A DNA stretch of 64,000 nt from an uncultured Oscillospiraceae bacterium (GTDB taxonomy: Bacteria; Bacillota; Clostridia; Oscillospirales; Oscillospiraceae): the NCBI GenBank assembly GCA_900754965.1, contig CAAEEO010000004.1, forward strand, positions 9,912 through 73,911, written 5' to 3'. This document shows positions 1,767 through 22,426 of the stretch, piece after piece; position 1 is the first letter of the stretch; each line of letters begins with the position of its first letter. The notes under the pieces were generated by a model, which saw only the letters and a program-made list of their open reading frames with translations, had not been told where the DNA came from and ran no database searches. Position numbers and translations under genes: made by a program.

Positions 1767-2113
1767 TACGGATTGGCCACCTGGTACATCAACTCATAGA
1801 CTTTATCCAGCAGGAACAGTCCACGCCTGGCATCCTCTGCCGTGGCGATACCGGCATTGACGCTGCGGGCGATCTGGTTGATGTTATTGCCGATGTGATG
1901 GATCTCCGTGCGGAGGTCCTTGATTTCCTGGGAGGGTCTGGCCCGGATCGGAGTCCCGTCGATGAGCCGGATGATATAAGCCCGTTTACACAGCCCGCAG
2001 AGTTTGGCCTGACGGCAGAGCTGCTGATACTGCTCCGCCGTCAGCTCAATGTGCAGATGGTGTTTTTCTTTTGGGAGCTCCAAGCGTGCCTCCTTTCTGC
2101 GGCTCTGCCGCAA
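1766..2113 (-). CDS. mobC: MobC-family relaxosome accessory protein
   Basis: MobC-like motif EIHHIGNNINQIARSVN. Sits directly upstream of the relaxase. A likelier start is TTG at 2083, 5 nt after AAAGGAGG. Confidence 0.85.
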   Translation of the reverse strand: MRQSRRKEARLELPKEKHHLHIELTAEQYQQLCRQAKLCGLCKRAYIIRLIDGTPIRARPSQEIKDLRTEIHHIGNNINQIARSVNAGIATAEDARRGLFLLDKVYELMYQVANP

Positions 2114-2296
2114 ACCTTCCGCCTGCAGGCGGCATTGGGGTCAGGGGTTTCCCCTGCAAGCGCGCAAAATGTACATTTGCGCTATGCTTGCCCAACGCCG
2201 CCCCTGGCGGCGTTGGCTCGGCCCCGCCGAAGCGGGGCCTTTTCTCATGCGGTAGGTGGTTTATGATCTGGGCAGGCAGAGCCTGCCAACTCATCG
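2114..2296. other. Candidate oriT / mobC promoter region with a dense array of GC-rich inverted repeats
   Basis: Inverted repeats: CCGCCTGCAGGCGG 2119-2132; CAGGGG-ttt-CCCCTG 2143-2157; GCGCAAA-n7-TTTGCGC 2162-2182; CCAACGCCGCC-cct-GGCGGCGTTGG 2192-2216; GGCCCCGC-cgaa-GCGGGGCC 2220-2239; GGCAGGC-aga-GCCTGCC near 2271-2287. Position upstream of mobC-relaxase is typical for oriT. The nic site was not identified. Confidence 0.4.
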
Positions 2297-2332
2297 AAAA
2301 AGAAAAATCACCGCTCTGGGCCAGAGCGGTGA
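2296..2332 (-). terminator. Rho-independent terminator (second of two after the MTase operon)
   Basis: TCACCGCTCTGG / CCAGAGCGGTGA perfect 12-bp arms (2308-2332), followed on the minus strand by TTTTTCTTTTT. Confidence 0.6.
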
Positions 2333-2416
2333 TGTCTGCCTTGCAGGCTGGAATGCTCAATATTCCTCTGACATGCTCATCTCCGTACAAGGGTGTCTAT
2401 GTTAGCACCCTGAAGG

Positions 2417-2457
2417 TTAAAAAATCCGGGCAGGGGGTCTAATGTGACACCCTGCCC
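2417..2457 (-). terminator. Rho-independent terminator after the methyltransferase gene
   Basis: GGGCAGGG...CCCTGCCC stem (2428-2457), followed on the minus strand by GGATTTTTT. Confidence 0.65.
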
Positions 2458-2513
2458 AAACTATAATATATTATCAGAAAACTCATCAACGACAATCGGC
2501 AGATAGTACGCCG

Positions 2514-3263
2514 TCACGCACCCTGGGCCAGTTCCCGCTCAATCCGTTCCTTGGACAGGGCGGCGTAGGCATCCGTAACCTCAATGCCGGTGGCGGAGTA
2601 ACCCTCCAGCACGGCAGCCAGCACCGTGCTGCCGGAACCGGCAAAGGGGTCCAGAATATGTCCGCCCGGCTCGGTGATCTTCACCACATCCCGCATGAGC
2701 TGCAAGGGCTTTTCCGTCAGGTGGATGCGGTTCTGGGGATTGCCATACTTGAATACGCCGGGCAGACAGGGGACAGGTCTGCTGATAGGCATATCCCCGT
2801 TGGAACCCCAGACAATGTACTCAGCCTGCTGGCGGAAACGGCCCTTCTGGGGACGGCTGTTGCCTTTGTCCCATACAGCGGTACCGCGCCAGATCCACCC
2901 CGCCCACTGGAGCGCATCAGTGGCTGCGGGGAGCTGCCGCCAGTCGATAAACATGCACACAGGGGCACCGGGTTTACAGACCTTGCGGGCGTCATAGAGC
3001 CATTCGGCGGCCCAGCGGGTCCAGGATCGCTGATCCTTGGAGTCGCCGTCAAAGGGAGGGGGTGCGCTTTCCCCCATGCTGGAATATTTCTTGTCGGTGG
3101 ACTTGTTTTTCTCCGCCTGGGTCCGACCCCCGGAGGCATAGGGGGGGTCGGTGATGACCGCATCGAAGGTATTAGGGGCAAACTCGCGCAGGACCTTCAG
3201 CGCGTCGCCGTGGATAATCTCCCAACTGGGACGGATCGCAGTGATGTTATCGCTCATAGGCAT
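2514..3263 (-). CDS. Orphan beta-class N6-adenine/N4-cytosine DNA methyltransferase
   Basis: Motif IV ITDPPYASGG precedes motif I DPFAGSGST. No restriction endonuclease partner nearby. Probable start is ATG 3263 (MPMSDNIT), preceded by GGAGAA. The longer track ORF to 3413 overlaps the upstream gene. Confidence 0.9.
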   Translation of the reverse strand: MPMSDNITAIRPSWEIIHGDALKVLREFAPNTFDAVITDPPYASGGRTQAEKNKSTDKKYSSMGESAPPPFDGDSKDQRSWTRWAAEWLYDARKVCKPGAPVCMFIDWRQLPAATDALQWAGWIWRGTAVWDKGNSRPQKGRFRQQAEYIVWGSNGDMPISRPVPCLPGVFKYGNPQNRIHLTEKPLQLMRDVVKITEPGGHILDPFAGSGSTVLAAVLEGYSATGIEVTDAYAALSKERIERELAQGA

Positions 3264-3840
3264 GTTTCTCCTTCTTTCCTTTGGATTGATCTTGGAGCGC
3301 GGGCAGTTCCGTCTCCACATATTCGCTGATGATACACAGCGCCTCATGATAACTGTGGCAATTCCCTCCGGTGATGCGGCCACACATCTCTTTGGCCTGG
3401 GCGCCCATGCCATGCTCCCGGAGCGTTCTGGACGCTGCCCCCATCAGGTTGAAGATGTTACCGTCTTGTTCAATCAGCGAACAGTACGGTTTCGATCGCT
3501 CCTGCTGGTGGGGCTGCTCCAGGAAACCACCCAGCCGATTGGGTACATAGTCGGACAGCCAAGTGCCTCCAAACTGGCTGTGTGTCTGAATCCGCCACAT
3601 CGCAAGCTTTCCCACATTCAGCTGAACCCCCTCAAAAGAGAACAGCAGGTTTGTGAGACCGTCGTGCTGGAATGTAGCCGCGTTTTCGAACTTGGAGCCG
3701 TTCAGCAGGATTCCTTCCTGAGTAAGCAGCTCGTTGATGCCGTCCACCCATTCCTGAAGGTCGCCGCCGCAGCCCTGGAGGATCAGCCCCTCCTCATCGG
3801 TCATGTGCCGCAAGTCCTCCGTGGTCTTTTCTCGGATCAT
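3247..3840 (-). CDS. Hypothetical protein (conserved MGE protein, function unknown)
   Basis: 197-aa ORF. ATGA start/stop overlap with the upstream gene and a 17-nt overlap with the MTase gene. No motif recognised. Confidence 0.6.
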   Translation of the reverse strand: MIREKTTEDLRHMTDEEGLILQGCGGDLQEWVDGINELLTQEGILLNGSKFENAATFQHDGLTNLLFSFEGVQLNVGKLAMWRIQTHSQFGGTWLSDYVPNRLGGFLEQPHQQERSKPYCSLIEQDGNIFNLMGAASRTLREHGMGAQAKEMCGRITGGNCHSYHEALCIISEYVETELPALQDQSKGKKEKHAYER

Positions 3841-4616
3841 TTGACCTCCTCGCGCTTGGCGCTTTTCTTTCTTCTGGGCGAAGTGCGTCCCTTCGTTTTC
3901 AAATCGGTTACCACTGGGATATCCAGTTTATTGGCGCGATGGATCTCCGCCCACATCCCTTCCGTGACCGGTCCATAGACATTGACCTGCTGGCACTTTT
4001 CTACCAGCCGAAGGCCCATCTCCCGTGCGGACTGATCCTGCACCGGATCGCCCGGATCTGCGATGGGCGGGAACATGAGATGGGGGCAGACTGGGATGTC
4101 GCCCGCCTGAAAGACTTCCTGGGCTTTCTGCCTGGCGAACGCAATGTTTTTCTCTACCTCGCCTCGGAGGGGCGCACAAATGTACACCAATTTGGGGCCA
4201 TGGTCCTTCGCCGGGACTTGAATACGGAAGGTCTCCACATAGTCGCTGGCCATTTGCCGGAGCTGCCGGTAGTCCTCCTGGGAGGGATGGTAGGCATACC
4301 AATCGATCCGGTTACCATCTACCCAAATATGCGGATCAACGCCATCCCGCAGGTAGGGGTTGTTGGGGATATTCTGTTTCCCCCATACATCCTTGAACCG
4401 AAGAGTCAGCTTGTCCACCACACCCTGGTCGTTGTCCAGCAGCGTCAGGCGGAGAGCCGCATAGTGATCCGCATGACCCAGTGTAACAAATTCAGCCCTC
4501 ACCTGACGGTTTCTGTCCAAGCCACCCAGGCAGGCACGGCCTACAAAGACCGGATCATGGATCACAGCTCCGTCCGCAAACAGTTTGCGGAGTTCCTGCT
4601 CAAAAAAGTTGCTCAT
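3837..4616 (-). CDS. Fusion protein: unknown N-terminal half plus DUF4406-like (nucleoside 2-deoxyribosyltransferase-like fold) C-terminal half
   Basis: The C-terminal KLVYICAPLRGEVEKNIAFARQKAQEVFQAGDIPVCPHLMFPP...VNVYGPVTEGMWAEIHRANKLDIPV matches my memory of the DUF4406 pattern. ATGA overlaps at both ends. Confidence 0.55.
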   Translation of the reverse strand: MSNFFEQELRKLFADGAVIHDPVFVGRACLGGLDRNRQVRAEFVTLGHADHYAALRLTLLDNDQGVVDKLTLRFKDVWGKQNIPNNPYLRDGVDPHIWVDGNRIDWYAYHPSQEDYRQLRQMASDYVETFRIQVPAKDHGPKLVYICAPLRGEVEKNIAFARQKAQEVFQAGDIPVCPHLMFPPIADPGDPVQDQSAREMGLRLVEKCQQVNVYGPVTEGMWAEIHRANKLDIPVVTDLKTKGRTSPRRKKSAKREEVK

Positions 4617-5248
4617 CTGCTCATCTCACAGCCTTTCTGTTTTTGGGGCGTGGGAGGGGACGGTTGTTGAGGAGCCAGTTCGTCTCGGGACGAATCCCGG
4701 ATCACAGAACGGTTTTTCCCGCTGATCACCAGGGTGTCCAGTGTATCGTTGCGGATTTCCTCACCGCTGATCACCAATGCGCTGCCTGTCAGACGCACAT
4801 CCCCGGATACTTTGCCATAGACCGCGCAGTGGCCGGACAGAATGGGAACGCCCATGGTATCTTTGTCATTGAGGATCATGGAAAAACCGGAGGCCCTGGC
4901 AGAGGCGCTGAGTACAGCGCCGCGTATATAGGCATTGTCCTCTACCCGCGCATGGCCGGAAAGGACAGCGCCCATAGAGATATAAGCGTTGTCGCAGACG
5001 ACCGCCTCTCCGCGCAGGACAGCCCCCTTGTCAACATAGGCGTCATTGCAGGCAATAGCATCGTCAAAGATCCATGCGGTATCGTCCGGCTCAAAGGAAA
5101 GGTTGCTCTCGCTCTCCACGAAGCCACCTAAATCACCGGCTCTGACCTCCGCACTCACATCTCGGAGTGCCCGGATACGATGAAGGAAGGGATACTTTTC
5201 GTGCGAGATCTCCGTGATCTCATATTTCTGATTGCTCGTTGTTCTCAT
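4613..5248 (-). CDS. YdcK-like left-handed beta-helix repeat protein
   Basis: 18-residue periodicity (AIACNDAYVDKGAVLRGE / AVVCDNAYISMGAVLSGH / ARVEDNAYIRGAVLS). N-terminal LHRIRALRDV..VRAGDLGGFVESESNLS resembles YdcK-family proteins. Confidence 0.6.
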   Translation of the reverse strand: MRTTSNQKYEITEISHEKYPFLHRIRALRDVSAEVRAGDLGGFVESESNLSFEPDDTAWIFDDAIACNDAYVDKGAVLRGEAVVCDNAYISMGAVLSGHARVEDNAYIRGAVLSASARASGFSMILNDKDTMGVPILSGHCAVYGKVSGDVRLTGSALVISGEEIRNDTLDTLVISGKNRSVIRDSSRDELAPQQPSPPTPQKQKGCEMSR

Positions 5249-5256
5249 CTCCTTTT

Positions 5257-6000
5257 TTATGCAGCATTTTGGAACAGACTCTCCTGCGCATCTTCCAGAC
5301 GGAACTCCGCGTCAATGTCGGAGAAGGTCTCACTGCGATTGAATTTCTCGCTCACCTTGTTGGGCAAGGCCTGCAGCTCCAACATCCGTTCCCACAGGTT
5401 TGGGTGGTAGTTATAGAGATGGCGCAGTTCTTTTCTTTTGGCGTTAGGGCAGAACCAACAGCCCCCGCGGGTTGTAAATGTGTAGACAGGCGAAAGCAGC
5501 CCTGCCCGCTGGCAGAGCTGCTTTGCATCTCCCTCTGTGCAGTTGTACTTGTCCAGTAAGGAGACCCGGTTCCCGGCCAATCGAAGCAGCCGTTCCTGCT
5601 CGTCCTTGGCGATCCCAATATACTGAACTGTGTCGGGCGGCAGCGATTTTTGGTATCGCAGGATCGGTTTCAGCTTGCAATCTCTCTGAACAGCACACCG
5701 TCCGCAGATGGGGAAAGAACGCAGAAGGCCCTTCTTGGGACCGCGGGTGATTTTGCCTGTGAAGAGATCCACATACGTTTTCTCACTGCGCAGGACGGTT
5801 ACCTTCACACCCCTGCGTTCTAAAGCCGGAATGGCGGTGGTGTAGATAAAATCTCGGTGTTCCGGCACCTCGCCGGAGATCTCCTTGTCGAACATGACCT
5901 CACAATATACTACCTCATCCAGAGGCTCCCCATGTTCCAGAGCCAGTAATATGGTGGCAAGACTGTCCTTACCAAAGGAACAGGAGGCGATATGTTTCAA
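5257..6000 (-). CDS. PAPS reductase-like PP-loop ATPase family protein
   Basis: PP-loop CSFGKDSLA near the N-terminus and C-terminal cysteines RGGCWFCPNA. Probable TTG start at 6000 forms TTGA with the metK stop. The track ATG at 6042 would overlap metK by 46 nt. Confidence 0.8.
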   Translation of the reverse strand: MKHIASCSFGKDSLATILLALEHGEPLDEVVYCEVMFDKEISGEVPEHRDFIYTTAIPALERRGVKVTVLRSEKTYVDLFTGKITRGPKKGLLRSFPICGRCAVQRDCKLKPILRYQKSLPPDTVQYIGIAKDEQERLLRLAGNRVSLLDKYNCTEGDAKQLCQRAGLLSPVYTFTTRGGCWFCPNAKRKELRHLYNYHPNLWERMLELQALPNKVSEKFNRSETFSDIDAEFRLEDAQESLFQNAA

Positions 6001-7148
6001 CGGTCCGACACACCTGCTTCCTTGATGCGACAGGCGTTGCACAGTACCTCCGCTTTGTCCGTCTGCTCCCAGGGAGCGTCCGGATGGGTAAAGTGGCCAT
6101 AGTTACAGAACTGAGCGAAGATGGGCTTGTCCAGTCCGAGGGTGTGACGCATCCCGGCGGGGGTCAGGTCAAAGACCGCCCGGACGGCCTGTTCCAGCAC
6201 ATCATCCCGGTATTCGCCGGTCCCATCGGTGTCCACGTTGACCGCCACGGGTTCAGCCTTGCCAATGGCATAGGCCAGGGCGACGGTACAGCGATCCGCC
6301 AGACCGGCAGATACAATGCTTTTTGCAATATAGCGGGCCATGTAGGCTCCGCTGCGGTCCACCTTGGTGGAGTCTTTACCAGACAGCGCGCCGCCGCCGT
6401 GAGGGGCCAGTCCGCCATAGGTATCCACCATCAGCTTGCGGCCCGTGAGGCCGGTATCCGCCTCAAATCCGCCGTAGACAAACCGCCCGGATGGATTGAT
6501 CAGGATCTCTGTATTCGTATCGGGCGGCAGCTCCCGCAGTGCGGGCTGGATCACATGGTCCATGAGTTCCGCCTGCAGCTGGCCCAGATCTTTCTCCGGG
6601 TCATGCTGGCAGGACAGAACCACCGATGCAAGACGTACGGGGATATCGAAGTTGTACTCCACAGACACCTGCGCCTTGCCGTCCGGACGCAGGCCCTGGA
6701 TCATCCCGGTTTTTCTGGCGTTGGTCAGCAGCCGGGTGAGCCGGTGGGCCAGGATGACCGGCAGAGGAAGATAGGATTCTGTCTCATCACAGGCAAAGCC
6801 ATACATGATCCCCTGGTCGCCAGCCCCGGTCTGGACTCCTTCCCGCACAGCGTGAGCAATATCATCGCTCTGATCGTGGGTGATGACCTCGATCTCATAG
6901 TCCAGCCCAGTGTACCCAGCTTCCCGGATGGTCCGGCAGACAATGGAGGGGATATCCGGCATGACCTTTGCCGAGATCTCTCCGGCCACCAGCACTTTGC
7001 CAGCTGTGGCCAGTACTTCGCAGGCCACATGGGCGGAGGAGTCACCCTTCAGACAGGCATCCAGAACAGAATCCGCGATGGTGTCGCAGAGTTTGTCAGG
7101 GTGACCCTCGGTAACAGACTCTGCGGTCAGAATGTATTTATCTCTCAT
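5997..7148 (-). CDS. metK: S-adenosylmethionine synthetase, element-borne copy
   Basis: 383 aa, full length. Motifs ESVTEGHPDKLCD, GAGDQGIMYGFA, GGGALSGKD. Confidence 0.95.
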   Translation of the reverse strand: MRDKYILTAESVTEGHPDKLCDTIADSVLDACLKGDSSAHVACEVLATAGKVLVAGEISAKVMPDIPSIVCRTIREAGYTGLDYEIEVITHDQSDDIAHAVREGVQTGAGDQGIMYGFACDETESYLPLPVILAHRLTRLLTNARKTGMIQGLRPDGKAQVSVEYNFDIPVRLASVVLSCQHDPEKDLGQLQAELMDHVIQPALRELPPDTNTEILINPSGRFVYGGFEADTGLTGRKLMVDTYGGLAPHGGGALSGKDSTKVDRSGAYMARYIAKSIVSAGLADRCTVALAYAIGKAEPVAVNVDTDGTGEYRDDVLEQAVRAVFDLTPAGMRHTLGLDKPIFAQFCNYGHFTHPDAPWEQTDKAEVLCNACRIKEAGVSDR

Positions 7149-7569
7149 AGTCAGTTTTCCCTTTCTTTTTTATGTGTTGGTCGCCAACGATCCGTCCCTG
7201 TTCTCCGGCTGCCGTTCGCACAGGAAGGATCTGCATGTTGTCGTACAGGGACTTGTATCGCTGAATCTGCTCATCCGTCAGGGAAATAAAGTCCTCCTGA
7301 CCAAGCCCAGCGATGAAGAAGGTCCCGCAGATGATGTCATAGGGCAGGCGATCTTCATCCAGCAATGGGCGGTTCATCGGCAGACCAAGGAGCTTTCCCT
7401 CAGAATTGCATACCAGGGCAACCGGCTCTTGGAACGGGTACACGGCTTCAATATCTCCGCCTACGATCCGCTGCATATCTGCGAGACTATTGATCTCCTG
7501 CACACGGCAGGGCTTTTGCGGTTCTACAACTAAGGCAATACCGCACAAATAGCGTATAGGGAGAGCCAT
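7138..7569 (-). pseudogene. DUF3846 domain protein, 5' end displaced by an IS5 insertion (current ORF starts inside the IS end)
   Basis: Present ORF is MALPIRYLCGIALVVEPQKPCRVQEIN. Removing 7534-8665 plus one CTAA copy restores ATG(8678) AAA GTA TTA GTT GTA GAA CCG = MKVLVVEPQKP, a typical DUF3846 N-terminus. Confidence 0.7.
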
Positions 7570-8665
7570 AGTAAGCTCGTCTGTAGGGCAGCCAGTATTA
7601 TCCCCTCAGTTCGCCTGGCAGGGCGCATCAACTCAGACTGCCAAGCAGGGCCTGTCAGCCAGGATCAGGTTCGCCAAGGCGAACAGCATATTCAATTTAG
7701 CGGTCTGCTTCCGCAGGCCCCGGTACCGTGTCTTTCGGTATCGGAACCGACCCTTGACGACCGCAAATACGTGTTCCACTTTAGCGCGAATAGATGACTT
7801 TTCGTGCTCTCTGCGCTTGAGCTGGCCCTGTGACCTGGCTGGTTTCTTCCTGATTTGAGAAGGGCGGCGGTTGATCCTGTAGCGGATGCTCCTTCCCTGG
7901 CGATTCCTTCGGATGCTATCCTCCCGTTTGTCCGCACCAAGATACCCGCTGTCTCCATAGACACTTTCTTCGTCACCGGTCAGCAGCTTGGAGGTCATAA
8001 CGACATCATGGGTATTGGCCCCAGTCACCTCAACGGTGTGGACCAGACCGGTATCCTTGTCCACTCCAACGTGCGCCTTGTAGCCGAAGTGCCATGTATT
8101 TCCCTTCTTCACCTGATGCGCGTCCGGGTCCCGCTGCTTTTCCTGATTTTTTGTAGAGGATGGCGCTGCAATGATCGTGGAGTCCACAATGGTCCCTTTT
8201 TTGAGGATAAGTCCTCTTTGCTGCAAAAGCTCCACTACCTGGCGGAACAGCTTCTCCTGCAGCCCATTGAGTATCAGCAGATTCCGAAAACGCCCCAGTG
8301 TATCGCCATCCGGCACCTGGTTGCTGGAGTCCACTCCGCAGAACTCCGAAAAGGCTCGGCTGTCTATGACCTCAGACACTGTTGCTTCGTCCGCCAGATC
8401 ATACAGGTTTTGCAGCAGATAGATCCTCAGCATCCGCTCCAGATCGTAGGGCTTATTGCCGCGTTCCCCCTTGTAGTAGCACGGCCTGATGAGTGTGAGC
8501 CACTCTCCCCACGGGACGATGCGTTCTATCTGCGATAGAAATTCTTTTTTCTTTGTCCGCACCTGCGCCAATTCATCGCTCAGGCCAGACAGACTTACTT
8601 GCTTATCCATGCCTATATTTTACCACACTTACCTTTATTCCGCATCTTTTCTGTGCGGTATTGCC
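7534..8665 (-). mobile_element. IS5-family insertion sequence (1132 bp)
   Basis: Perfect 14-bp terminal inverted repeats: GGCAATACCGCACA at 7534-7547 and its complement at 8652-8665. Flanked by a 4-bp CTAA direct duplication (7530-7533, 8666-8669). Single DDE transposase ORF. Confidence 0.9.
7633..8610 (-). CDS. IS5-family DDE transposase
   Basis: 325 aa. Close resemblance along its length to the E. coli IS5 transposase as I remember it (PWGEWLTLIRPCYYKGERGNKPYDLERMLRIYLLQ, IIAAPSSTKNQEKQRDPDAHQVKKGNTWHFGYKAHVGVD, SIRAKVEHVFAVVKGRF). Confidence 0.95.
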   Translation of the reverse strand: MDKQVSLSGLSDELAQVRTKKKEFLSQIERIVPWGEWLTLIRPCYYKGERGNKPYDLERMLRIYLLQNLYDLADEATVSEVIDSRAFSEFCGVDSSNQVPDGDTLGRFRNLLILNGLQEKLFRQVVELLQQRGLILKKGTIVDSTIIAAPSSTKNQEKQRDPDAHQVKKGNTWHFGYKAHVGVDKDTGLVHTVEVTGANTHDVVMTSKLLTGDEESVYGDSGYLGADKREDSIRRNRQGRSIRYRINRRPSQIRKKPARSQGQLKRREHEKSSIRAKVEHVFAVVKGRFRYRKTRYRGLRKQTAKLNMLFALANLILADRPCLAV

Positions 8666-8693
8666 CTAATACTTTCATGTGCGCTCATTCCCC

Positions 8694-9218
8694 CTATCGC
8701 TCTTTCCCACGTTGTTTCTTGGGCAATTTGGCCTGCCCGCCGCAGATACGGTTGAGTTTACTGCTCGCTTGATCCAATTCCTTAGCACAATACTCCCATG
8801 CCTGTTTTAATTTGGACAGTGGCAGTCCGTTCTGGCGGTAGCCATCCCGAATGCCCTGGTAATAATATTCCGAGGGCAGGGCGGGAGAGCGCCACCGATC
8901 CCCATCTGTCATCACGTAGGCCATGACAGTCAGCTGCCGCCCCGCATTATCCCGCACAGCAACAGACTCTTTTTCGTATAGGTGGGGATATCCCTCATAG
9001 AGATCGAGAGACCGCTCACAGCCTGGTGTGATCCGCCAAAGCAGGCCATGGACCTGCTTACCTTCCTTGGGCTGGATGGTGGCAACGCCATTTCCGCTTG
9101 CGTTGCCACGAAACAGCAGTTCATATCCCTCCAGCACGACCGGCCCCACCACCTGGGCCGCGGGACAGCGGTAGGCCATCTGATCCAGGTTGATGTTGCT
9201 GCCGTAGGCGAAATACAA
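8694..9218 (-). CDS. Gamma-glutamylcyclotransferase (GGCT/AIG2-like) family protein
   Basis: N-terminal MYFAYGSNINLDQMAYRCP plus LDLYEGYPHLYEK, typical of the GGCT fold. Confidence 0.85.
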   Translation of the reverse strand: MYFAYGSNINLDQMAYRCPAAQVVGPVVLEGYELLFRGNASGNGVATIQPKEGKQVHGLLWRITPGCERSLDLYEGYPHLYEKESVAVRDNAGRQLTVMAYVMTDGDRWRSPALPSEYYYQGIRDGYRQNGLPLSKLKQAWEYCAKELDQASSKLNRICGGQAKLPKKQRGKER

Positions 9219-9225
9219 TTTATCT

Positions 9226-9477
9226 TCAGTTATGGTCCAACACCTCCAGCACGCCGATCTTCGCCAGCGCCATGATCATGGTCTGCGCCTGTGCTTCTAC
9301 ACCGCAATCCGGCAGAATGCAGTCCTGATCCGTCATGCGGATGAAGTTGCTGCGAAGCTGCCAAATATAGCTTTCTGTGTCCGGAAACTCCGTGGGGTCA
9401 AAGGCAGCTTTCCGAAGCTGATCCATGATTTCTGTCCCGGTACCCTCGTACACGGTATCTTCAATGCGTATTTTCAT
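9226..9477 (-). CDS. Hypothetical small protein (83 aa)
   Basis: ORF with an ATGA overlap to the amidoligase stop, and 7 nt upstream of the GGCT start. No motif recognised. Confidence 0.5.
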   Translation of the reverse strand: MKIRIEDTVYEGTGTEIMDQLRKAAFDPTEFPDTESYIWQLRSNFIRMTDQDCILPDCGVEAQAQTMIMALAKIGVLEVLDHN

Positions 9478-10475
9478 CGTGCCACCTCACTGCTTCGGTT
9501 TTTCTTTTTCTTATTGACATCATAGCTGTCCTTGTCATAGCGCCATGCCCGATCCCCGTCCAAGTTGGCCAGAAGATGATCCCGCGTGTGCTTGAACTCC
9601 GGTCCATTCAACCCAAGGCGTACCAACCACACCCGGAAGGTAAACAGTTCGTTGTCACTTTGCGTTTTGCGCATGACGGTGCTGCGCTGGGCGATGGCTT
9701 GGGCCGATATGGCAACGCACAGATTCACATAAGCAGCAGCCCGGCCCGCATGGAGAGTGGAGTTAAAACAGCGAAATTCCACGGTCCCTCGGTAAAACAC
9801 AGAATGGAGATTGAGCGCATAGTACCGCGTCCAGTTGTAGTGCTCTGTACTGCCGTTGTCCCCCTCGTACCAGATGGCTTCCAGCTGTGTCAGGTTTTTG
9901 GTTTCTTCGGATGAAAGCTTGCGTGCCTTTTGCAGCATGGGTTCCCGTACCTTCTGACACCACCTGGAGGCCCGAGACTCATTGACCTGCAATGCTTTGA
10001 ACAAAATATCCTCTTTGGAATACATGATCCCGATGAGATTTTTTAGCGACTGCCGGTTGTGGTTTGCAGCATCCACATGGATGTGGATACCGCAGGAGGA
10101 ATTGACTTTTCCCCCTGCGGTGCGGACGCGGCGGACGCATTCCTGAAATTTGGGCAATTCCGCATAGGTCAGTTTGGGCGTGACCATTTCCACACGATAC
10201 CTCGGATCTGAGGTGGAGGTGTATCTGGCACCCACTTTTTGTTCTCCACGGATACTACTATCGCTCATAAGCCGCCATTCTTTGCCCATCTCATCCTTCA
10301 CATACCAGCTATCGTAGTAGTCATCGTCCCGGCGAGGCACTGTGCCAAAATAATCCGCTAAGGCTTGGGCCGCCTGTTCACGAGTAATTCCGGTCAGTTC
10401 CACTTCCACGCCGAAGCACTGATCTTTCAGTCCTACTTCATTCATGTCACTGCTCCCTTCTAAAAGATGTTTCAA
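9474..10475 (-). CDS. Amidoligase_2-family (glutamine synthetase-like) enzyme
   Basis: N-terminal FGVEVELTGITREQAAQALADYFG and CGIHIHVDA match my memory of the putative amidoligase family found on mobile elements. Confidence 0.75.
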   Translation of the reverse strand: MKHLLEGSSDMNEVGLKDQCFGVEVELTGITREQAAQALADYFGTVPRRDDDYYDSWYVKDEMGKEWRLMSDSSIRGEQKVGARYTSTSDPRYRVEMVTPKLTYAELPKFQECVRRVRTAGGKVNSSCGIHIHVDAANHNRQSLKNLIGIMYSKEDILFKALQVNESRASRWCQKVREPMLQKARKLSSEETKNLTQLEAIWYEGDNGSTEHYNWTRYYALNLHSVFYRGTVEFRCFNSTLHAGRAAAYVNLCVAISAQAIAQRSTVMRKTQSDNELFTFRVWLVRLGLNGPEFKHTRDHLLANLDGDRAWRYDKDSYDVNKKKKNRSSEVAR

Positions 10476-10539
10476 AACCTTGTAAACACTGTATCCGTTC
10501 GAAAACCGCTGATCCCGGCGAACATATCAAAATGGCGTA

Positions 10540-10839
10540 TTAGGTGATCTCATCTCCTTCCTGCTGCAGGGCAAGAAGAAAGCCGAGGACATTCTCATCC
10601 ATGTCCCCGGCCTGTGCCTGCTGGCTTTTTTCTGTTGTCAGATCTAAATGGCGCAGTTCTTCCCGGATCAGCCCCCGGATGGCGGACAACAGGGCGTCCT
10701 GTTCATGGGCTTTACAGACCATCCTGCACACGGTGTCTGTCCGCTGCCCCGCTGGGATGGAACTCAAGATGCGCCAGGCTTCCCGCTGCTGGGGCGATGT
10801 CAGAGAAAAAGAAAGGTTGAGCCGCCGCTTACCCGCCAT
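10540..10839 (-). CDS. ParR-like ribbon-helix-helix centromere-binding protein (putative)
   Basis: Small ORF immediately after parM. N-terminal beta-strand-like KRRLNLSFSL. Probable start is MAGKRR at 10839. Confidence 0.45.
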   Translation of the reverse strand: MAGKRRLNLSFSLTSPQQREAWRILSSIPAGQRTDTVCRMVCKAHEQDALLSAIRGLIREELRHLDLTTEKSQQAQAGDMDENVLGFLLALQQEGDEIT

Positions 10840-11761
10840 GGCCGACACCCCGCGACATCTGCCCCACAAGGCGCTCATATCCTTTGGCGTTCAGGGATAC
10901 GTCATCCAGTATAAGTGGGCGGCACAGACCGTCTGTGGCCGAAAGGTGGCGCTTTAAGAGCGCCGCTCCGCCGCCCAGGAAGATGGTGGGCATGGCTCGG
11001 ATGTCCAAGCCGCTTTCTGTGACTGCCGAGAGCAGGTTTCGGGCGTACTTACCTGCCTGGGCGTGGATAACCGCCCTGATTCGCTCATCCATCCCGCCGG
11101 AGCTACCCCGCAGGGCGCTCTCGATCTGAGCGGTAGTCATGGACAGCCCAAACAACCGGCGCACCTGTTCGCTGATTTCATCGACACAGCGGATCATGCC
11201 CAGTTCCAGACTCCGGCAGGAGGCAGCGTTGGGGATGCGGTTGTCCAGACGCATCAGATCCACCGTCCAGCCGCCTATGTCGGCCACGATGACGGACGGC
11301 TCGTCCAGCAGCTCCGTCTGGGTCAGGACGGCAGCATAGCCCTGGGGAAACAGGGACACCTCTTGGATGGTGATGGTATAGTCCTGCCCCTCATAGCGAA
11401 AAGGAATGGCGCTCCCATCCCGGTACAGATACGAACGGAAGGACTTCTTGTCCCGGCCAAAGCTGGTCAGGGGCAGACCCGCCGCCAGGTGGATGCTGGC
11501 GGTGTGCTCCGCACCCCGGTGCTCCAGCTCCTTGGCGATGGCTGCCAGGGTAAGCAGATAGTAGTCCTCCGTCTGAGTCTTATCTCTCTGAAGGGGCTGA
11601 CGACCGCTGCCCACCACATAGTATCTGCCGCCGCACTCCAGTACATCTTTCTGGGTGTACGGCTCGTATTCGTACTCTACTAACCCGGTGGGAAAGGAGA
11701 AGTGGACAGTTTTCATGGCTGCATAGCCATGATCCACGCCGATCACAATTACATCATTCAT
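10829..11761 (-). CDS. parM: ParM/StbA-family actin-like segregation ATPase
   Basis: 310 aa. Actin-fold phosphate motifs IGVDHGYAAMK and ADIGGWTVDL, and LGGGAALL. Confidence 0.85.
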   Translation of the reverse strand: MNDVIVIGVDHGYAAMKTVHFSFPTGLVEYEYEPYTQKDVLECGGRYYVVGSGRQPLQRDKTQTEDYYLLTLAAIAKELEHRGAEHTASIHLAAGLPLTSFGRDKKSFRSYLYRDGSAIPFRYEGQDYTITIQEVSLFPQGYAAVLTQTELLDEPSVIVADIGGWTVDLMRLDNRIPNAASCRSLELGMIRCVDEISEQVRRLFGLSMTTAQIESALRGSSGGMDERIRAVIHAQAGKYARNLLSAVTESGLDIRAMPTIFLGGGAALLKRHLSATDGLCRPLILDDVSLNAKGYERLVGQMSRGVGHGG

Positions 11762-12126
11762 CTGGTATCGTGCTCCTTCCGATCATGTTGTTTCTGAGGA
11801 TTTAGATGGTAGTTTTGCAGTATCGCTGTGTACAGCTTTTGCTCAAATGCCCGATATGCCGGTGTGGTGCGGTCGATAGGGAGAAGGACGGCCCGTTCGT
11901 AGCAGGTTCCAGGTACGATCTCCCAGCGGATGGCATGGAACTGATCCGCCAGCAGATAGCGCATGAGCTGATGACCGTTCATCAGTTCAAACATCCCGCG
12001 GGAGTCCTCATAAGGGAACTGCTTATATAGCTCAAAGCCTGTCAGCCTTTGGGCTGTGAAGTACAGCTTGAAGCCACCTGGGTCCAGTTCTGGGGCGAGC
12101 TGCTCATAGAATGTCTTTGCGTCCAT
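11758..12126 (-). CDS. Hypothetical protein
   Basis: 122-aa ORF with a 4-nt overlap to the parM start. No motif recognised. Confidence 0.5.
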   Translation of the reverse strand: MDAKTFYEQLAPELDPGGFKLYFTAQRLTGFELYKQFPYEDSRGMFELMNGHQLMRYLLADQFHAIRWEIVPGTCYERAVLLPIDRTTPAYRAFEQKLYTAILQNYHLNPQKQHDRKEHDTR

Positions 12127-12127
12127 C

Positions 12128-12547
12128 TCAACCAGCCCTTCTCCACTTTTGGGTCAGCCGTTCCAGAACAGTCAGCCTGCCGTACACTTTCCGCGCCGAG
12201 AGATCCAGCCCTTTCATCTGGTTTTGGATACGGCGGTGGATCTGCTTGAGCTGCCGCCTGTCGCCGCAGCCCTCCAGCACTACATAGCTGCCTTTTCCGT
12301 TGGCCAGCACCTCACGCCGCCCGGTATCATCCCGGAGACTGGCCATGAGCCGCTGGCCCAGGCGCTTGCGGTAGCTGTCCTGGAGGGCCTCCGCATCTCC
12401 GCACACCCCATGCTTTTTCAGGATCGCGGCGATTTGGCTGGAGTGGATATCCATTCCCTCGAACAACGCCTCCAGGATCTCCTGCTCCGCCTCTGGCGGC
12501 AGTCTGGGCGGAGCAGTCGGCTTGGCACCCTCATTTTCCCGGTTCAT
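12128..12547 (-). CDS. Hypothetical protein
   Basis: 139-aa ORF, coupled to its neighbours. No motif recognised. Confidence 0.5.
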   Translation of the reverse strand: MNRENEGAKPTAPPRLPPEAEQEILEALFEGMDIHSSQIAAILKKHGVCGDAEALQDSYRKRLGQRLMASLRDDTGRREVLANGKGSYVVLEGCGDRRQLKQIHRRIQNQMKGLDLSARKVYGRLTVLERLTQKWRRAG

Positions 12548-13041
12548 CGTTCTGCCTCCTTTCGCTTTTTTTGAGGGGAACGCGGTGTTTTTGCAGGCTG
12601 CGGATCACCGCGCCAGGTTTCCGGGGCCATGGTGTTGATATGGCGGAGCATATCCCGCACATTTGCACAGGTGAATTCCGGCTGTTCAAATCCATGGCGC
12701 TCCGTGTAGATGGTCCACTTATGGGTCTCATGGGGACTGTCCCGGATGACCACAAAATATCTCCCGTTGCGGTCACCATGCAGCGGTTCAAACCGCACAT
12801 CATCATAGAGCGGGCCGGACAGCGGGCAGTTGTTCTTGAACCAGACATAGTAATGGTCCAGGATATATGGGTCGGTGATCCCCATGACCACCTTGCTCAA
12901 CTTCTGGAGCCGTCCGGCCAGCGCGTCATCCTGACAGAACCAGTCATACCACCCGGCCTCACACTGAACGGCACGATCTTTCGAGGAAAAATCCCCGGCA
13001 CGGAACCGCTCCTGCCACTGGCGGACACTCATTTCCGTCAT
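12544..13041 (-). CDS. Hypothetical protein
   Basis: 165-aa ORF with 4-nt overlaps at both ends. Trp/Cys-rich with a basic C-terminal tail. Confidence 0.55.
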   Translation of the reverse strand: MTEMSVRQWQERFRAGDFSSKDRAVQCEAGWYDWFCQDDALAGRLQKLSKVVMGITDPYILDHYYVWFKNNCPLSGPLYDDVRFEPLHGDRNGRYFVVIRDSPHETHKWTIYTERHGFEQPEFTCANVRDMLRHINTMAPETWRGDPQPAKTPRSPQKKRKEAER

Positions 13042-13952
13042 AGCGTCCCCCTCTCCGGCAGGAGGCGCTCCATGAGGTCGGCAATGGTCCGAAACACCTC
13101 CGCCAATTCACGAGACTCTTTCACCGTATCTTCCATCTCGTCCCTGGTCATGCGGGTGCATTTAGCCCAGATCCGGACATTTTCCTCTGTGGGGTCCAGC
13201 AGGACCGCCTTTTCATACGCCTTGCAGAAGACTCCGGCGATCTTCCCCTCACGGTCGATCTCCGCGTCCTTTTCCTGGATTTCCTTTTTTGCTTTCAGGA
13301 TGTCCAGCGCCTCCTGGGCGGCCTGCTCCCGCTGCTCCTCCGGCAGATCCTCCACCTGCTTGGTGATCTGGTAGCCCTGATTGATGGACAGTTCCTTCTT
13401 GTCCAGCGCCTCCTTGACCGCTGCGGGGGCGTGCTCGTCGATCTGCATCACTTTGCCCATGGTCCGCTCACCCAGACCAACGGAGTCTGCCAGTTCTTTG
13501 CGGGTATCAACAGGAGGAAGGTTTGGCAATGTTGCCGAACCTTCCTCAGATGGGCGGTATGCCTGCCCTCCGGCAGACATATTGGCCTTGGCCCTGGCTT
13601 CGATCTCCGGCTTAAGCTTCAGGGCGATCTTGCCCAGTTCCCACTTGTCCAGGTTACGGCGGCCTTTCTGGGTGTCCAGCGCCCACTGCTTGGCCTCCAG
13701 CAGATCGTCAAAGGCGAACACCAGCATCTGATAGGGCAGGCCGTGCTTGTCGCATAAGGATTTTCGGTTATGTCCGTCAATAACGACCAGATCCTCATTG
13801 ACGATGATGGAGGTATAGCACCCATTTTTCAGGAGATCTGTCTCCAGTGCGCCGAGCTGCTCCTCGCTCAAAGGCGGGAGCAGCTCGGCCATCTCAGGCA
13901 GCACAACAGGGGTGTGCTCTGTGCTGCTGTAAATGATCCCGGTGTTCTTCAT
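13038..13952 (-). CDS. ParB/Srx N-terminal domain protein
   Basis: ParB-like core LVVIDGHNRKSLC and a predicted HTH segment (RKELADSVGLGERTMGKV). Confidence 0.8.
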   Translation of the reverse strand: MKNTGIIYSSTEHTPVVLPEMAELLPPLSEEQLGALETDLLKNGCYTSIIVNEDLVVIDGHNRKSLCDKHGLPYQMLVFAFDDLLEAKQWALDTQKGRRNLDKWELGKIALKLKPEIEARAKANMSAGGQAYRPSEEGSATLPNLPPVDTRKELADSVGLGERTMGKVMQIDEHAPAAVKEALDKKELSINQGYQITKQVEDLPEEQREQAAQEALDILKAKKEIQEKDAEIDREGKIAGVFCKAYEKAVLLDPTEENVRIWAKCTRMTRDEMEDTVKESRELAEVFRTIADLMERLLPERGTL

Positions 13953-14323
13953 CAGGCGGCCTCACACTCGCCCTGGTTCTGCTCGGCAGCGGTCGCATCC
14001 TCTGCCCGACGGGGGGAGAGGAGCTCCACCTCCGCAGCCTTGATCAGGAAGCCGGGCTGGCGGGTGGGATCGTCAGAAAAAGTGATGGTCTCGAAGTCGC
14101 CGGAGGCGGCCAGCTTGCAGCCCTTCCAGGCATAGGCAGCACAGAACTCGGCCAGGGGGCCGCGCACCTTGATGGAGATGAAGTCGGTGAGCCGGTTGCC
14201 CTCCTGATCCCGATAGCGGCGGTCCGAGGCGATGCGCAGGATGGCATAGGGCTTGCCCGTGGTTTCGTTCATCTTCAGCTCCACATCATTGGTCAGATTT
14301 CCAGTGGCAGTGATCTTCAACAT
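13952..14323 (-). CDS. ssb: Single-stranded DNA-binding protein (element-encoded)
   Basis: OB-fold N-terminus MLKITATGNLTNDVELKMNETTGKPYAILRIASDRRYRD. RBS AAAGGAGAA. Confidence 0.9.
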   Translation of the reverse strand: MLKITATGNLTNDVELKMNETTGKPYAILRIASDRRYRDQEGNRLTDFISIKVRGPLAEFCAAYAWKGCKLAASGDFETITFSDDPTRQPGFLIKAAEVELLSPRRAEDATAAEQNQGECEAA

Positions 14324-14360: not shown

Positions 14361-14398
14361 TAAGAAAGAGGGGGACTCACAGCTTTTGTGAGTCCCCC
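14361..14398 (-). terminator. Rho-independent terminator directly after the adhesin stop codon
   Basis: GGGGGACTCACA / TGTGAGTCCCCC 12-bp stem (14370-14398), followed on the minus strand by TCTTTCTT. Confidence 0.7.
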
Positions 14399-19582: not shown

Positions 19583-19675
19583 AGCGCCTCCTTTAATAAT
19601 GGGCGGAAAGAGGTGTTGAACAATACGTTGCTCACCACCTCTTTCTGAACATGATTTAGTTGAGATTCAGAAGAA

Positions 19676-22414: not shown

Positions 22415-22426
22415 GTCACCTTCTCG

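Follow-up and report, generated by a model that had tools for sequence, protein, structure and literature searches.

Seven tightly packed minus-strand genes in DNA from an uncultured Oscillospiraceae bacterium raise the question of whether they act together. The window, by which is meant the whole 64,000-nt stretch that was analysed (GCA_900754965.1, contig CAAEEO010000004.1, positions 9,912 to 73,911 of the forward strand), had received a first-pass annotation in which the seven were a single unit suited to DNA base hypermodification or SAM-dependent counter-defence. Whether that reading holds depends on where the unit begins and ends, how its members behave in relatives, and what the encoded proteins resemble.

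Seven genes within a longer operon

All seven ORFs are present where they had first been placed (Table 1), and the junctions match the first description: overlaps of 11 nt (7138-7148) and 17 nt (3247-3263), TTGA at 5997-6000, and ATGA both at 4613-4616 and at 3837-3840. The PP-loop and beta-helix ORFs are separated by an 8-nt gap (5249-5256) that contains GGAG. The TTG start of the PP-loop ORF at 6000 is backed by 247-aa homologues, and the methylase ATG at 3263 by full-length alignment, the genes of relatives being called at ~240 aa. Because homologues run to thousands (4106 for the PP-loop protein and 6394 for the 197-aa protein), the seven ORFs are true genes and not chance reading frames. 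For four of the seven proteins, no experimentally characterised homologue was found.

Table 1. Features of the window from the relaxase gene to SSB (all on the minus strand)
Feature	Coordinates	Evidence
MobA/VirD2-type relaxase	360-1766	Pfam; relaxosome pair matches PF21983, PF05713, PF03432
NikA/MobC-like relaxosome gene (mobC)	1766-2113	Pfam; relaxosome pair matches PF21983, PF05713, PF03432
oriT-like block, immediately upstream of mobC	2114-2290	inverted repeats; 14-sequence alignment
Two terminator-like hairpins with T-runs, closing the operon	2307-2457 (2428-2457; 2307-2333)	
Orphan beta-class N6/N4 DNA methyltransferase (DPPY), final gene of operon	2514-3263	PF01555 E 3e-27; PADLOC MTase_II E 7e-61
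197-aa protein, two domains (~1-106, ~118-177), Lys-rich tail	3247-3840	C-domain phrog_1933 E 8e-12
Two-domain protein: uncharacterised N-terminal half (~1-135), DUF7768/nucleoside-2-deoxyribosyltransferase-like C-terminal half	3837-4616	PF24963 E 2e-29 (residues 142-236); phrog_355 E 2e-20
Left-handed beta-helix (hexapeptide-repeat) protein, YdcK-like N-terminal region	4613-5248	Hexapep E 4e-7; YdcK PDB 2f9c E 2e-8; phrog_5070, phrog_7964
PP-loop ATP pyrophosphatase, 247 aa, TTG start	5257-6000	phrog_424 'PAPS reductase' E 3e-34; PADLOC SspD HMM E 6e-9
MetK, full-length S-adenosylmethionine synthetase	5997-7148	TIGR01034 461 bits (cut-off 309); three S-AdoMet_synt domains; phrog_1569 E 4e-130
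DUF3846 ORF, chimeric	7138-7569	PF12957 E 2e-37; IS junction read directly
IS5-family element	7534-8665	DDE_Tnp_1 + DUF772; transposase ORF 7633-8610
Orphaned native 5' end of DUF3846 gene	8666-8678	ATG 8676-8678, then AAA GTA TTA G
Upstream part of same tightly packed operon	8694-14323	Pfam; synteny in large majority of related ICE loci
GGACT/AIG2	8694-9218	Pfam; upstream operon
Amidoligase_2	9474-10475	Pfam; upstream operon
ParM-like	10829-11761	Pfam; upstream operon
SSB	13952-14323	Pfam; upstream operon

The chaining by start/stop overlaps is real, but it is not special to these genes, as the same packing runs through the array from SSB downward. The upstream genes follow in the order SSB, four unknowns, ParM-like, a 112-aa ORF, Amidoligase_2, an 83-aa ORF and GGACT/AIG2, and no strong terminator was found between 14370 and 2457. 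In IS-free relatives, the seven genes prolong an equally tight operon of ~20 genes that includes SSB, ParM-like, amidoligase and GGACT, so the boundary of a seven-gene cassette is arbitrary.

In this window an IS5-family element, bounded by 17-nt imperfect terminal inverted repeats and a 4-bp TTAG target duplication (8666-8669 and 7530-7533), severs the seven genes from the upstream operon and alters the first of them. Comparison with IS-free relatives by blastn, together with direct reading of the junctions, places the insertion after codon 4 of the native DUF3846 gene. Residues 1-12 of the present ORF (7534-7569) are IS-encoded and the native coding part is 7138-7533, whereas the native ATG sits 15 nt past the GGACT stop (8694-8696); the native N-terminus is MKVLVVEPQK, as in relatives. 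Collinearity is seen in the IS-free relatives L013, L015 and L017; where no IS is present, DUF3846 directly follows GGACT, with 25 nt separating the tblastn hits and ~15 nt the stop from the start. The assignment of this protein to DUF3846 is correct, but the gene is disrupted, and the start of the present ORF (7569) falls within the IS. Expression of the seven genes in this window may rely on read-through from the IS.

Distribution in one ICE family and beyond

The entire SSB-to-relaxase array recurs across the related loci surveyed (80 genome loci, 9 'viral' contigs, and eight contigs traced from two homologues of the PP-loop protein). This ICE family, to which the seven-gene set is confined, is widespread in gut Oscillospiraceae (Flavonifractor, Intestinimonas, Pseudoflavonifractor, Lawsonibacter, Oscillibacter and others). 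Of the 35 distinct bounded architectures that were compared, the PP-loop gene and the methylase are each present in 35, MetK in 34, DUF3846 in 33, DUF7768 in 32, the 197-aa gene in 31 and the beta-helix gene in 27. Gene order within the set is constant in 24 of these, and in 11 a member is lost, duplicated, moved or split off by unrelated genes; the 197-aa gene is shifted upstream in some architectures, and the beta-helix and DUF7768 genes are doubled in others. The interval is between 3.8 and 14.1 kb long, and the cargo between GGACT and mobC comprises 165 clusters of other ORFs (YodL, DUF1281_C, DUF6329, HipA, AbiE and many unknowns). Most relatives carry in addition a C5 methylase that is absent from the window.

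These distributions bear on the proposal that the seven genes, coupled in translation, make up a single pathway to either a hypermodified base in DNA or a counter-defence product derived from SAM. The close coupling throughout, the order constant in 24 of the 35 architectures, and the chemically suggestive parts (cofactor supply, an adenylating enzyme, a glycosyl-transfer-like fold and a methylase) are what such a pathway would lead one to expect. However, about 12 upstream genes of unrelated function are coupled equally well, foreign genes are intercalated between members, and relatives without the beta-helix, DUF7768, 197-aa or MetK gene have the remainder intact. Nor did Pfam, NCBIfam and PHROG profiles detect in the block any transglycosylase, hydroxymethylase, DNA kinase or glycosyltransferase, the base-installing classes of known hypermodification pathways; and were the base made via the nucleotide pool, the chromosome of the host that replicates the ICE would presumably be modified too. 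The first-pass annotation would itself have counted a lack of co-occurrence beyond this element against its reading, and co-occurrence of the seven ends at the one ICE lineage: outside it, the PP-loop gene (52-70% identity) occurs without the other six, and the other proteins are each distributed widely and separately among phages. A single seven-enzyme pathway is unlikely, indeed hard to credit. Since the order is constant in 24 architectures, some functional interdependence could still exist within the subsets DUF3846-MetK, MetK-PP-loop, 197-aa-methylase and beta-helix-DUF7768. As the annotation had supposed, no characterised system of this composition was found.

The encoded proteins and the PP-loop enzyme

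Most of the original domain calls held (DUF3846, MetK, PP-loop, YdcK-like beta-helix and DPPY methylase). MetK belongs to a phage/MGE-associated clade. The methylase was rightly called an orphan, as Pfam and PADLOC profiles found no restriction enzyme among its neighbours; its nearest solved structures are 8urk, CcrM 6pbd and DpnA 5hek. The beta-helix protein scores 49 bits with YdcK_fam, far under the 350 cut-off. The C-terminal half called DUF4406-like is deoxyribosyltransferase-like (phrog_355 is annotated 'nucleoside 2-deoxyribosyltransferase') but scores as DUF7768, the DUF4406 profile giving no score at E <= 0.01; this C-domain alone is found in 78 GenBank phage records. The 197-aa protein is, as described, without assignable function: it has no match in Pfam or NCBIfam, and its AF2 model (pLDDT 70) has no significant fold match. 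Its domains occur apart in Bacillus phages G and SP-15.

For the PP-loop protein, earlier called PAPS-reductase/DndC-like, the PP-loop itself (SFGKDS; family consensus SGGKDS) and the GGCWFCP motif are present; phrog_424 matches, and the profile of SspD, a DNA phosphorothioation protein, aligns over the full length. The CysH-type identity is not borne out, in that the protein has no Pfam match and PAPS_reduct does not score at E <= 0.01. Its family alignment contains conserved C102, K109 and R178-G-G-C181-W-F-C184-P, with three (nearly) invariant cysteines arranged C...CxxC. Foldseek best matches to the AF2 model (pLDDT 96.7) are NcsA, TtuA, MnmA and GMP synthase ATPPase. No PAPS or APS reductase figures among the top 50 structural matches, and the family profile found no solved structure by sequence. 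CysH was rejected as an identity: the C-terminal ECG[LI]H redox motif is missing, the protein ending instead in GGCWFCP plus helices. In fold the model comes closest to the [4Fe-4S] thiolases TtuA and NcsA, which, like DndC/SspD more loosely, share the SGGKDS-type PP-loop and C...CxxC cysteines. Unlike in TtuA/NcsA, the Fe-S site here is putative. TM-scores to the best PDB structures are only 0.41-0.47 at 12-19% identity, and there are no sulfur-donor or partner genes near the PP-loop gene.

These results weigh on a metabolic reading, in which the 'PAPS reductase' and MetK would enhance the sulfur assimilation and methyl cycle of the host instead of acting on DNA. The database name of the protein is indeed 'phosphoadenosine phosphosulfate reductase', and a preprint by Kieft et al. 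(10.1101/2021.01.05.425418) reports that cysH, metK and dcm are common among the viral 'organosulfur AMGs' of human-associated samples. Yet sequence and modelled fold both point away from such a reductase, the gene has ArdC, ArdA, TopoIII, methylases and terminases as neighbours but in no case genes of sulfate assimilation, and its place in a leading-region operon favours a role at entry. A metabolic role is barely conceivable.

A smaller module within the island is a different matter. MetK would supply SAM, the PP-loop enzyme would add a second post-replicative mark (for example thio or phosphorothioate) beside that of the methylase or methylases, and the other four genes would be passengers. 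The SspD match and the TtuA/NcsA-like fold with its three cysteines are consistent with this, as is the near-universal presence of methylase and MetK in the bounded architectures. In many ICE loci MetK abuts the PP-loop gene (0-nt gap between tblastn hits; TTGA in the window). Elsewhere, the PP-loop gene adjoins methylases in 9 loci (L116-L121 among the methylase-adjacent loci) and lies amid three methylases and SSB in phage phiCD119. In a bona fide phage (L154-L156), the order is TerS, PP-loop (53% identity), C5 MTase, MetK (41% identity), ParB_N+N6_N4 MTase and TerL; PP-loop, MetK and DNA methylases thus come together again, independently, and this narrower link survives. Co-occurrence of metK and dcm is also on record for Streptococcus suis phages (Kieft et al. 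preprint). On the other hand, the largest group outside the ICE family, another conjugative element (37-40 loci) with the PP-loop gene between TopoIII and an ArdC-type protein, has no MetK or nearby recognisable methylase, and ~20 phage-like loci likewise lack both. MetK is missing from L041, L061 and L073-L075, which retain the PP-loop gene and, where the locus reaches that far, the methylase; often 0.45-1.3 kb of foreign genes, such as a YodL-like one, separate MetK from the PP-loop gene. Pfam and PADLOC profiles found no sulfur-mobilising partner (cysteine desulfurase, DndD/E or SspB/C). The smaller module seems possible, though rather unlikely.

Reports of phage-borne metK offer a partial parallel, with MetK beside C5 and N6/N4 methylases in phage L156. 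In S. suis and S. agalactiae, where a prophage metK has been studied (PMC8223999), the gene was read as metabolic or affecting host phenotype, and no link to a leading region or PP-loop enzyme was described.

A probable establishment island beside an oriT-like block

Relative to a conserved oriT-like region, the seven genes sit on the side away from the relaxase and are transcribed in the direction of that region, which supports the leading-region placement first proposed. The oriT-like block contains GCGCAAGCATAGCGCAAA...TTTTGCGCGCTTGC and two GC hairpins with compensatory changes across relatives in the 14-sequence alignment upstream of mobC. Only in the window and its closest relatives does the cassette directly adjoin oriT; elsewhere in the family, methylase and mobC are 0.3-6.3 kb apart, with AbiE/HipA and other cargo filling part of the space.

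Leading regions of conjugative plasmids are rich in MTases, SSBs and TA genes in one orientation, and 'PAPS reductase' and 'nucleoside 2-deoxyribosyltransferase' are already among their unknown families (Samuel et al., Nature 2024, PMC11541004); in Gram-positive plasmids, with establishment regulons in the pLS20 family, the establishment genes are likewise mosaic (PMC8708921). The present locus bears the same signature: position opposite the relaxase, all genes oriented towards oriT, SSB and orphan methylase(s), TA modules (AbiE, HipA) in ICE relatives, and mosaic content that varies greatly between close relatives. It differs in belonging to a chromosomal ICE of anaerobic gut Clostridia, in encoding no ArdA, ArdB, ArdC, KlcA, anti-CRISPR or PsiB in the window's own block, and in carrying a full MetK, which was not found in the tables of PMC11541004. 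Polyvalent anti-restriction proteins of conjugative elements and phages (Iyer, Burroughs, Anand, de Souza & Aravind 2017, PMC5512222) offer a further comparison. In the other conjugative element, DUF3846 is fused to ArdA, LPD18 and DUF4316 in such a protein, downstream of and 4 kb from the PP-loop homologue. YodL, DUF3848/3849-type and similar domains are intercalated in the present island as stand-alone genes; here, by contrast, the domains are separate, small, translationally coupled genes rather than one fused polypeptide.

The seven genes are probably the oriT-proximal end of a long leading-region ICE operon (SSB, ParM-like, amidoligase/GGACT, DUF3846, MetK, PP-loop, beta-helix, DUF7768, 197-aa protein, methylase), an establishment/anti-defence island of largely independent modules rather than one biosynthetic pathway. 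Judging from the usual relaxase-last arrangement, transfer from the oriT beside mobC would bring the island side into the recipient first, and with all genes pointing towards oriT, the transferred strand would be their template and could permit early expression. SSB would coat the incoming strand, and the orphan N6/N4 methylase, joined in most relatives by the C5 methylase, would methylate element DNA ahead of host restriction enzymes, with the element's own MetK raising SAM supply for the burst. A MetK-fed orphan methylase, both partners being identified at the family level, would be the island's clearest function. By analogy with the ArdA fusions, DUF3846 probably counters restriction, and the beta-helix, DUF7768 and 197-aa proteins may be accessory counter-defence or establishment factors. 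The PP-loop enzyme is the island's most interesting unknown: most likely it adenylates, then thiolates or aminates, a nucleic-acid substrate via its putative three-cysteine Fe-S site, and would thereby supply a further modification, protective or for counter-defence, that needs none of the other six genes.

Composition and packing of the gene block

The seven-gene block is real, but it is of an ordinary kind and is not a new seven-component system. As the first-pass annotation had described, seven minus-strand open reading frames are chained between 7569 and 2514, and every junction that it listed is exact (see table), including an 8-nt gap, where a GGAG precedes the ATG start at 5248. The TTG start of the PP-loop ORF at 6000 and the ATG start of the methylase at 3263 both fit the lengths of their homologues.

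Profile searches bear out most of the domain assignments that had been read from the sequence. The head protein matches DUF3846 (PF12957, E 2e-37), and the SAM synthetase MetK is full length, scoring 461.5 bits against TIGR01034 (NCBIfam cut-off 309.4) and containing three S-AdoMet_synt domains in Pfam. The methylase, with its DPPY motif in place, scores 96.5 bits against PF01555 (cut-off 26.7) and is a beta-class N6/N4 DNA methyltransferase; it is also an orphan, flanked by the 197-aa gene and by the terminators and oriT-like block, with no restriction endonuclease profile matched among its neighbors (Pfam, PADLOC). The 197-aa protein, previously described as unknown, has a 70-aa C-terminal PHROG as its sole profile match. 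Its AF2 model (pLDDT 70) predicts a small ferredoxin-like alpha/beta unit as the N-domain, and a fold search with this model gave no match below E 0.09.

Two assignments stand only in part. The protein that had been called a YdcK-like beta-helix does have hexapeptide repeats and an N-terminus resembling YdcK (PDB 2f9c, E 2e-8), but it scores 49 bits against the YdcK equivalog NF040481 (NCBIfam cut-off 350) over an alignment confined to the N-terminal 120 residues; it resembles YdcK but does not belong to the family. The C-terminal half that had been likened to DUF4406 scores with neither the DUF4406 nor the PF05014 profile, but it matches DUF7768 (PF24963, E 2e-29) and phrog_355, “nucleoside 2-deoxyribosyltransferase” (E 2e-20), and a Glu within TEGMWAEIHRA is, by eye only, a candidate catalytic residue of the NDT fold. 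Neither the DUF7768 nor the 197-aa protein rose above noise in searches of PDB sequences, the literature on DUF3846 and DUF7768 yielded nothing useful, and megablast of window positions 2100-7700 found no match among PLSDB plasmids or GenBank phages.

A near-identical sequence, C-TAT-GAG-(A/C)GA-TAA with the downstream ATG embedded, occurs at the DUF3846/MetK and 197-aa/methylase junctions, and the DUF3846 and 197-aa proteins both terminate in a Lys-rich tail plus YER. If the second methylase ATG is used, the overlap there is also 11 nt. Recombination may have left the shared sequence as a scar, or it may be conserved as a signal for coupling.

Positions in the window of the gene block and surrounding features
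Feature	Position	Strand	Remark
Relaxase gene	360-1766	minus	
mobC	1766-2113	minus	
oriT-like block	2114-2290		about 170 nt upstream of mobC
Terminator-like hairpin	2307-2333		after methylase
Terminator-like hairpin	2428-2457		after methylase
Seven-gene block	2514-7569	minus	DUF3846, MetK, PP-loop, beta-helix, DUF7768, 197-aa, methylase
197-aa/methylase overlap	3247-3263	minus	17 nt; shared junction sequence
Second methylase ATG	3255-3257	minus	
DUF7768/197-aa junction	3837-3840	minus	ATGA
Beta-helix/DUF7768 junction	4613-4616	minus	ATGA
PP-loop ORF	5257-6000	minus	247 aa
MetK/PP-loop junction	5997-6000	minus	TTGA
DUF3846/MetK overlap	7138-7148	minus	11 nt
Shared junction sequence	7138-7152	minus	DUF3846/MetK
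IS5-family element	7534-8665	minus	1,132 bp
Native DUF3846 start	8676-8678	minus	ATG
Amidoligase_2, 83-aa ORF, GGACT	8694-10475	minus	
C5 methylase site	10476-10539		64-nt gap
SSB to GGACT	14323-8694	minus	upstream operon
Terminator-like hairpin	14370-14398		after upstream adhesin gene
ICE end	14405-22456	minus	adhesin, sortase, primase

The upstream operon, the insertion and the oriT-like region

Comparison with three 96%-identical, insertion-free relatives (L013, from Flavonifractor plautii ATCC 29863; L015; and L017, from Pseudoflavonifractor capillosus ATCC 29799) reveals an IS5-family element bounded by 17-nt terminal inverted repeats, with TTAG duplicated at the target. It follows codon 4 of the DUF3846 gene, is oriented like the operon and encodes a 325-aa transposase (DDE_Tnp_1 and DUF772). 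The head ORF, which had been started at 7569, takes its first 12 codons from the IS; the gene is broken, and its native start (MKVLVVEPQK...) is now 1.1 kb away. The element also parts the seven genes from the promoter upstream. A different, 1.7-kb insertion lies between DUF3846 and MetK in the relative L009.

Nor do the seven genes form a unit of their own, as had been supposed. In IS-free relatives, DUF3846 directly follows the GGACT/AIG2 gene (25 nt between tblastn hits, ~15 nt from stop to start), and the same tight packing, with 4-nt overlaps and few-nt gaps, continues upstream. The genes before GGACT are the 83-aa ORF, Amidoligase_2, usually a C5 methylase, a ParM-like actin, several unknowns and SSB. 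Terminator-like hairpins bound this whole array; a scan of its interior found one weak hairpin near 10.6 kb and none matching the end hairpins in strength.

Directly upstream of the cassette, the triad of Amidoligase_2 (333 aa), the 83-aa ORF and a GGACT/AIG2-like gamma-glutamyl cyclotransferase is kept in nearly every relative whose locus spans the region, and it may be a peptide-ligation or tagging module of the establishment operon. Most relatives encode a C5 cytosine DNA methylase (~385 aa) between a 112-aa ORF and the amidoligase (e.g., 4660-5817 in locus L001). In the window, as in some of its closest relatives, only a short gap is found at this site, and the window's element thus carries one methylase rather than two.

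The minus-strand order is operon, terminators, oriT-like block, mobC and relaxase. The oriT-like block is conserved across the ICE family, and comparison of the window with the homologous regions of 13 loci shows that two GC-rich hairpins are kept by compensatory changes (e.g., CAACGCCGCC/GGCGGCGTTG versus CCCTGCCGCC/GGCGGCAGGG), which is consistent with an oriT. The same comparison identifies an invariant GCGCAAGCATAGCG core as a candidate nic region. The placement of the cassette beside oriT holds for the window but not for the family generally: in other relatives, 0.3-6.3 kb of DNA, partly made up of AbiEii/AbiEi, HipA and other genes, separates the methylase from the oriT-like block. Beyond ~23 kb are ordinary chromosomal housekeeping genes (radical SAM, threonine synthase, Lon, IspH-S1), so the window holds one end of the ICE, which on the relaxase side extends past position 1.

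The ICE end encodes a 1725-aa TED/SpaA adhesin, a sortase and a DUF3991-Toprim primase, all on the strand of the operon. Several relatives have a divergent second PP-loop paralog, 31-35% identical to the window protein, immediately upstream of oriT/mobC. It lies 83-459 nt upstream of mobC in L021, L030, L038, L044, L048, L070 and L087, and is present as well in L084 and L085, whose loci stop short of mobC. Each of these elements thus has two members of the family.

Distribution within and beyond the ICE family

When 185,579 species genomes were scanned with an alignment of 10 PP-loop sequences, 357 relatives were recovered, and nearly all of the best 80 (69-98% identity) belong to gut Oscillospiraceae-type Clostridia. 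By tblastn with 20 window proteins, the whole SSB-to-relaxase backbone is present in the large majority of these 80 loci. Within this ICE family the cassette is modular. Among 35 distinct bounded architectures, the PP-loop and methylase genes occur in all 35, MetK in 34, DUF3846 in 33, DUF7768 in 32, the 197-aa gene in 31 and the beta-helix gene in 27, and MetK is also missing from several unbounded loci (L041, L061, L073-75). Some relatives have the 197-aa gene relocated upstream of DUF3846, and some have duplicates of the beta-helix and DUF7768 genes. The GGACT-to-mobC interval accommodates 165 clusters of other ORFs, including YodL, DUF1281_C, DUF6329, DUF3848-like proteins and many unknowns.

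Contigs from “viral” databases also contain the cassette: GenBank MT838297.1 (8,057 bp, “Bacteriophage sp.” from human feces) and the IMG/VR loci L089-L095, L108 and L158. These contigs are fragments of the ICE family rather than phages: the SSB-to-relaxase backbone is present, and the stretches inspected contain no virion genes.

The seven genes were not found together outside this one ICE lineage. IMG/VR contigs with a PP-loop identity of ~76% or more represent the same ICE, and at 52-70% identity the other six genes are absent. In phages of other phyla, the DUF7768 domain, the beta-helix protein and both halves of the 197-aa protein are each widespread, with distributions that do not overlap. 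That the seven genes constitute a hypermodification pathway, as first proposed, is thus very unlikely: the set is modular, its members are individually dispensable, it is confined to a single lineage, and it has no installing enzyme, since Pfam, NCBIfam and PHROGs detected no TGT/DpdA, dNMP hydroxymethylase, 5-hmdU kinase or glycosyl-/aminoacyl-transferase.

The PP-loop gene has other companions elsewhere. A different conjugative element, represented by 37-40 loci, has it between topoisomerase III and an ArdC-N/metallopeptidase/DUF3849 protein, followed by a MutS_I protein and an ArdA-DUF3846-LPD18-DUF4316 polyvalent protein. In true phages it is located in early regions or beside terminase; in phiCD119 it is found amid SSB, three DNA methylases and RusA. 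One phage group has the order TerS, PP-loop, C5 MTase, MetK, ParB-N6/N4 MTase, TerL. The corresponding block of IMGVR_UViG_3300024270_004878 (L156, 6107-13535), a PP-loop/C5 methylase/MetK/ParB_N-N6/N4 methylase array with the small terminase subunit on one side and the large one on the other, combines three cassette functions independently. This phage instance favors a PP-loop, MetK and methylase sub-module, but such a grouping seems rather unlikely given the many PP-loop contexts that are without MetK or methylase.

Identity of the PP-loop enzyme and the role of the region

The protein that had been called PAPS-reductase-like has the motif SFGKDS at residues 8-13 (SGGKDS in the consensus of 38 diverse aligned sequences), and this motif and its AF2 model (pLDDT 96.7) indicate a member of the PP-loop ATP pyrophosphatase superfamily. 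The alignment also reveals an invariant lysine and three (nearly) invariant cysteines, C102, C181 and C184, the latter two within R-G-G-C-W-F-C-P. The top PDB matches of the model are all PP-loop enzymes, the best being the [4Fe-4S] tRNA thiolases NcsA and TtuA, followed by MnmA and the ATPPase domain of GMP synthase (TM only 0.41-0.47). TM-scores in the TtuA/NcsA-type comparison are 0.41-0.43. The three conserved cysteines are candidate ligands of a [4Fe-4S] cluster near the PP-loop, and the enzyme is putatively Fe-S dependent.

Enzymes of the CysH type are distinguished by a C-terminal ECG[LI]H motif with the catalytic cysteine. This motif is absent from the window protein, whose C-terminal part reads RGGCWFCPNAKRKEL and then continues in helices. 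No Pfam family is matched at E <= 0.01, PAPS_reduct (PF01507) included; NCBIfam gives weak local matches to PRK13795 around the CxxC region only; the protein and its 38-sequence profile return noise against PDB sequences; and no PAPS/APS reductase is among the top 50 PDB fold matches. Proteins named “PAPS reductase” do appear among fold matches to viral models (TM 0.56-0.65). A CysH identity is rejected on motif, profile, fold and context, and the corresponding interpretation of the gene as a sulfur AMG is hardly credible. The motif, cysteines, fold matches and missing redox motif instead argue, in our reading, for a divergent PP-loop adenylating enzyme that would act on a nucleic-acid or nucleotide substrate, and not for sulfate assimilation.

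The protein matches phrog_424 (E 3e-34) and the PADLOC SspD profile (E 6e-9). The latter recalls Dnd/Ssp phosphorothioation, but the window operon has no cysteine desulfurase or DndD-like ATPase. Among the cassette neighbors PADLOC reports only the methylase and this weak SspD-like match, and a defense system was rejected because no system is found. Longer PP-loop “fusions” were discarded as Rosetta-stone evidence: PTS, integrase, SpaA, TraG and decarboxylase sequences are joined to partial PP-loop segments, and these representatives look like assembly or gene-calling chimeras. The sole fusion that echoes the ArdC neighbor is PP-loop+DUF3849.

The PP-loop family comprises 1696 clusters at 50% identity; ICEs, phage-plasmids and phages carry it, in Clostridia and as far afield as Helicobacter. 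Tentatively, it is possible that the window protein founds an uncharacterized, widespread family of mobile-element proteins and acts as a stand-alone Fe-S nucleic-acid thiolase or amidotransferase against restriction-like defenses. Such an enzyme might mark incoming DNA or disable a host tRNA or second messenger, and on some elements it might partner with MetK-boosted methylation.

Most likely, the block belongs to a mosaic establishment/anti-defense operon carried by a common gut ICE, and in the window the IS has cut off its head. As in the leading-region islands of plasmids, the genes are found across oriT from the relaxase and all point towards oriT, and the region shares with them SSB, orphan methylases, TA modules and mosaic content (PMC11541004, PMC8708921). 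“PAPS reductase” and “nucleoside 2-deoxyribosyltransferase” families are listed among the unknown leading-region families in a supplementary table (PMC11541004). The establishment operon would consist of mostly independent modules. The orphan methylase would provide protective methylation with SAM from the element's own MetK, DUF3846 would be an anti-restriction-type domain, the PP-loop enzyme would contribute a second, independent modification or counter-defense activity, and the beta-helix, DUF7768 and 197-aa proteins would be accessory. Here we infer the direction of transfer (leading side), early expression and all biochemical roles beyond those of MetK and the methylase.

Human-gut Oscillospiraceae very commonly carry ICEs of this family, homologs of which number in the thousands in metagenomes, and the leading regions of its members are a largely unexplored reservoir of counter-defense genes for Gram-positive anaerobes. 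Interest attaches to the parts that are uncharacterized, especially the PP-loop family and the pairing of MetK with the methylase. That an orphan methylase comes with a SAM synthetase of its own suggests a simple way in which an element might speed up protective methylation. On unrelated elements the PP-loop enzyme recurs next to ArdA, ArdC and methylases, and it is routinely mislabeled as the sulfur-metabolism gene cysH; if that annotation were shown to be wrong, the reading of “viral sulfur AMGs” in gut viromes would change.
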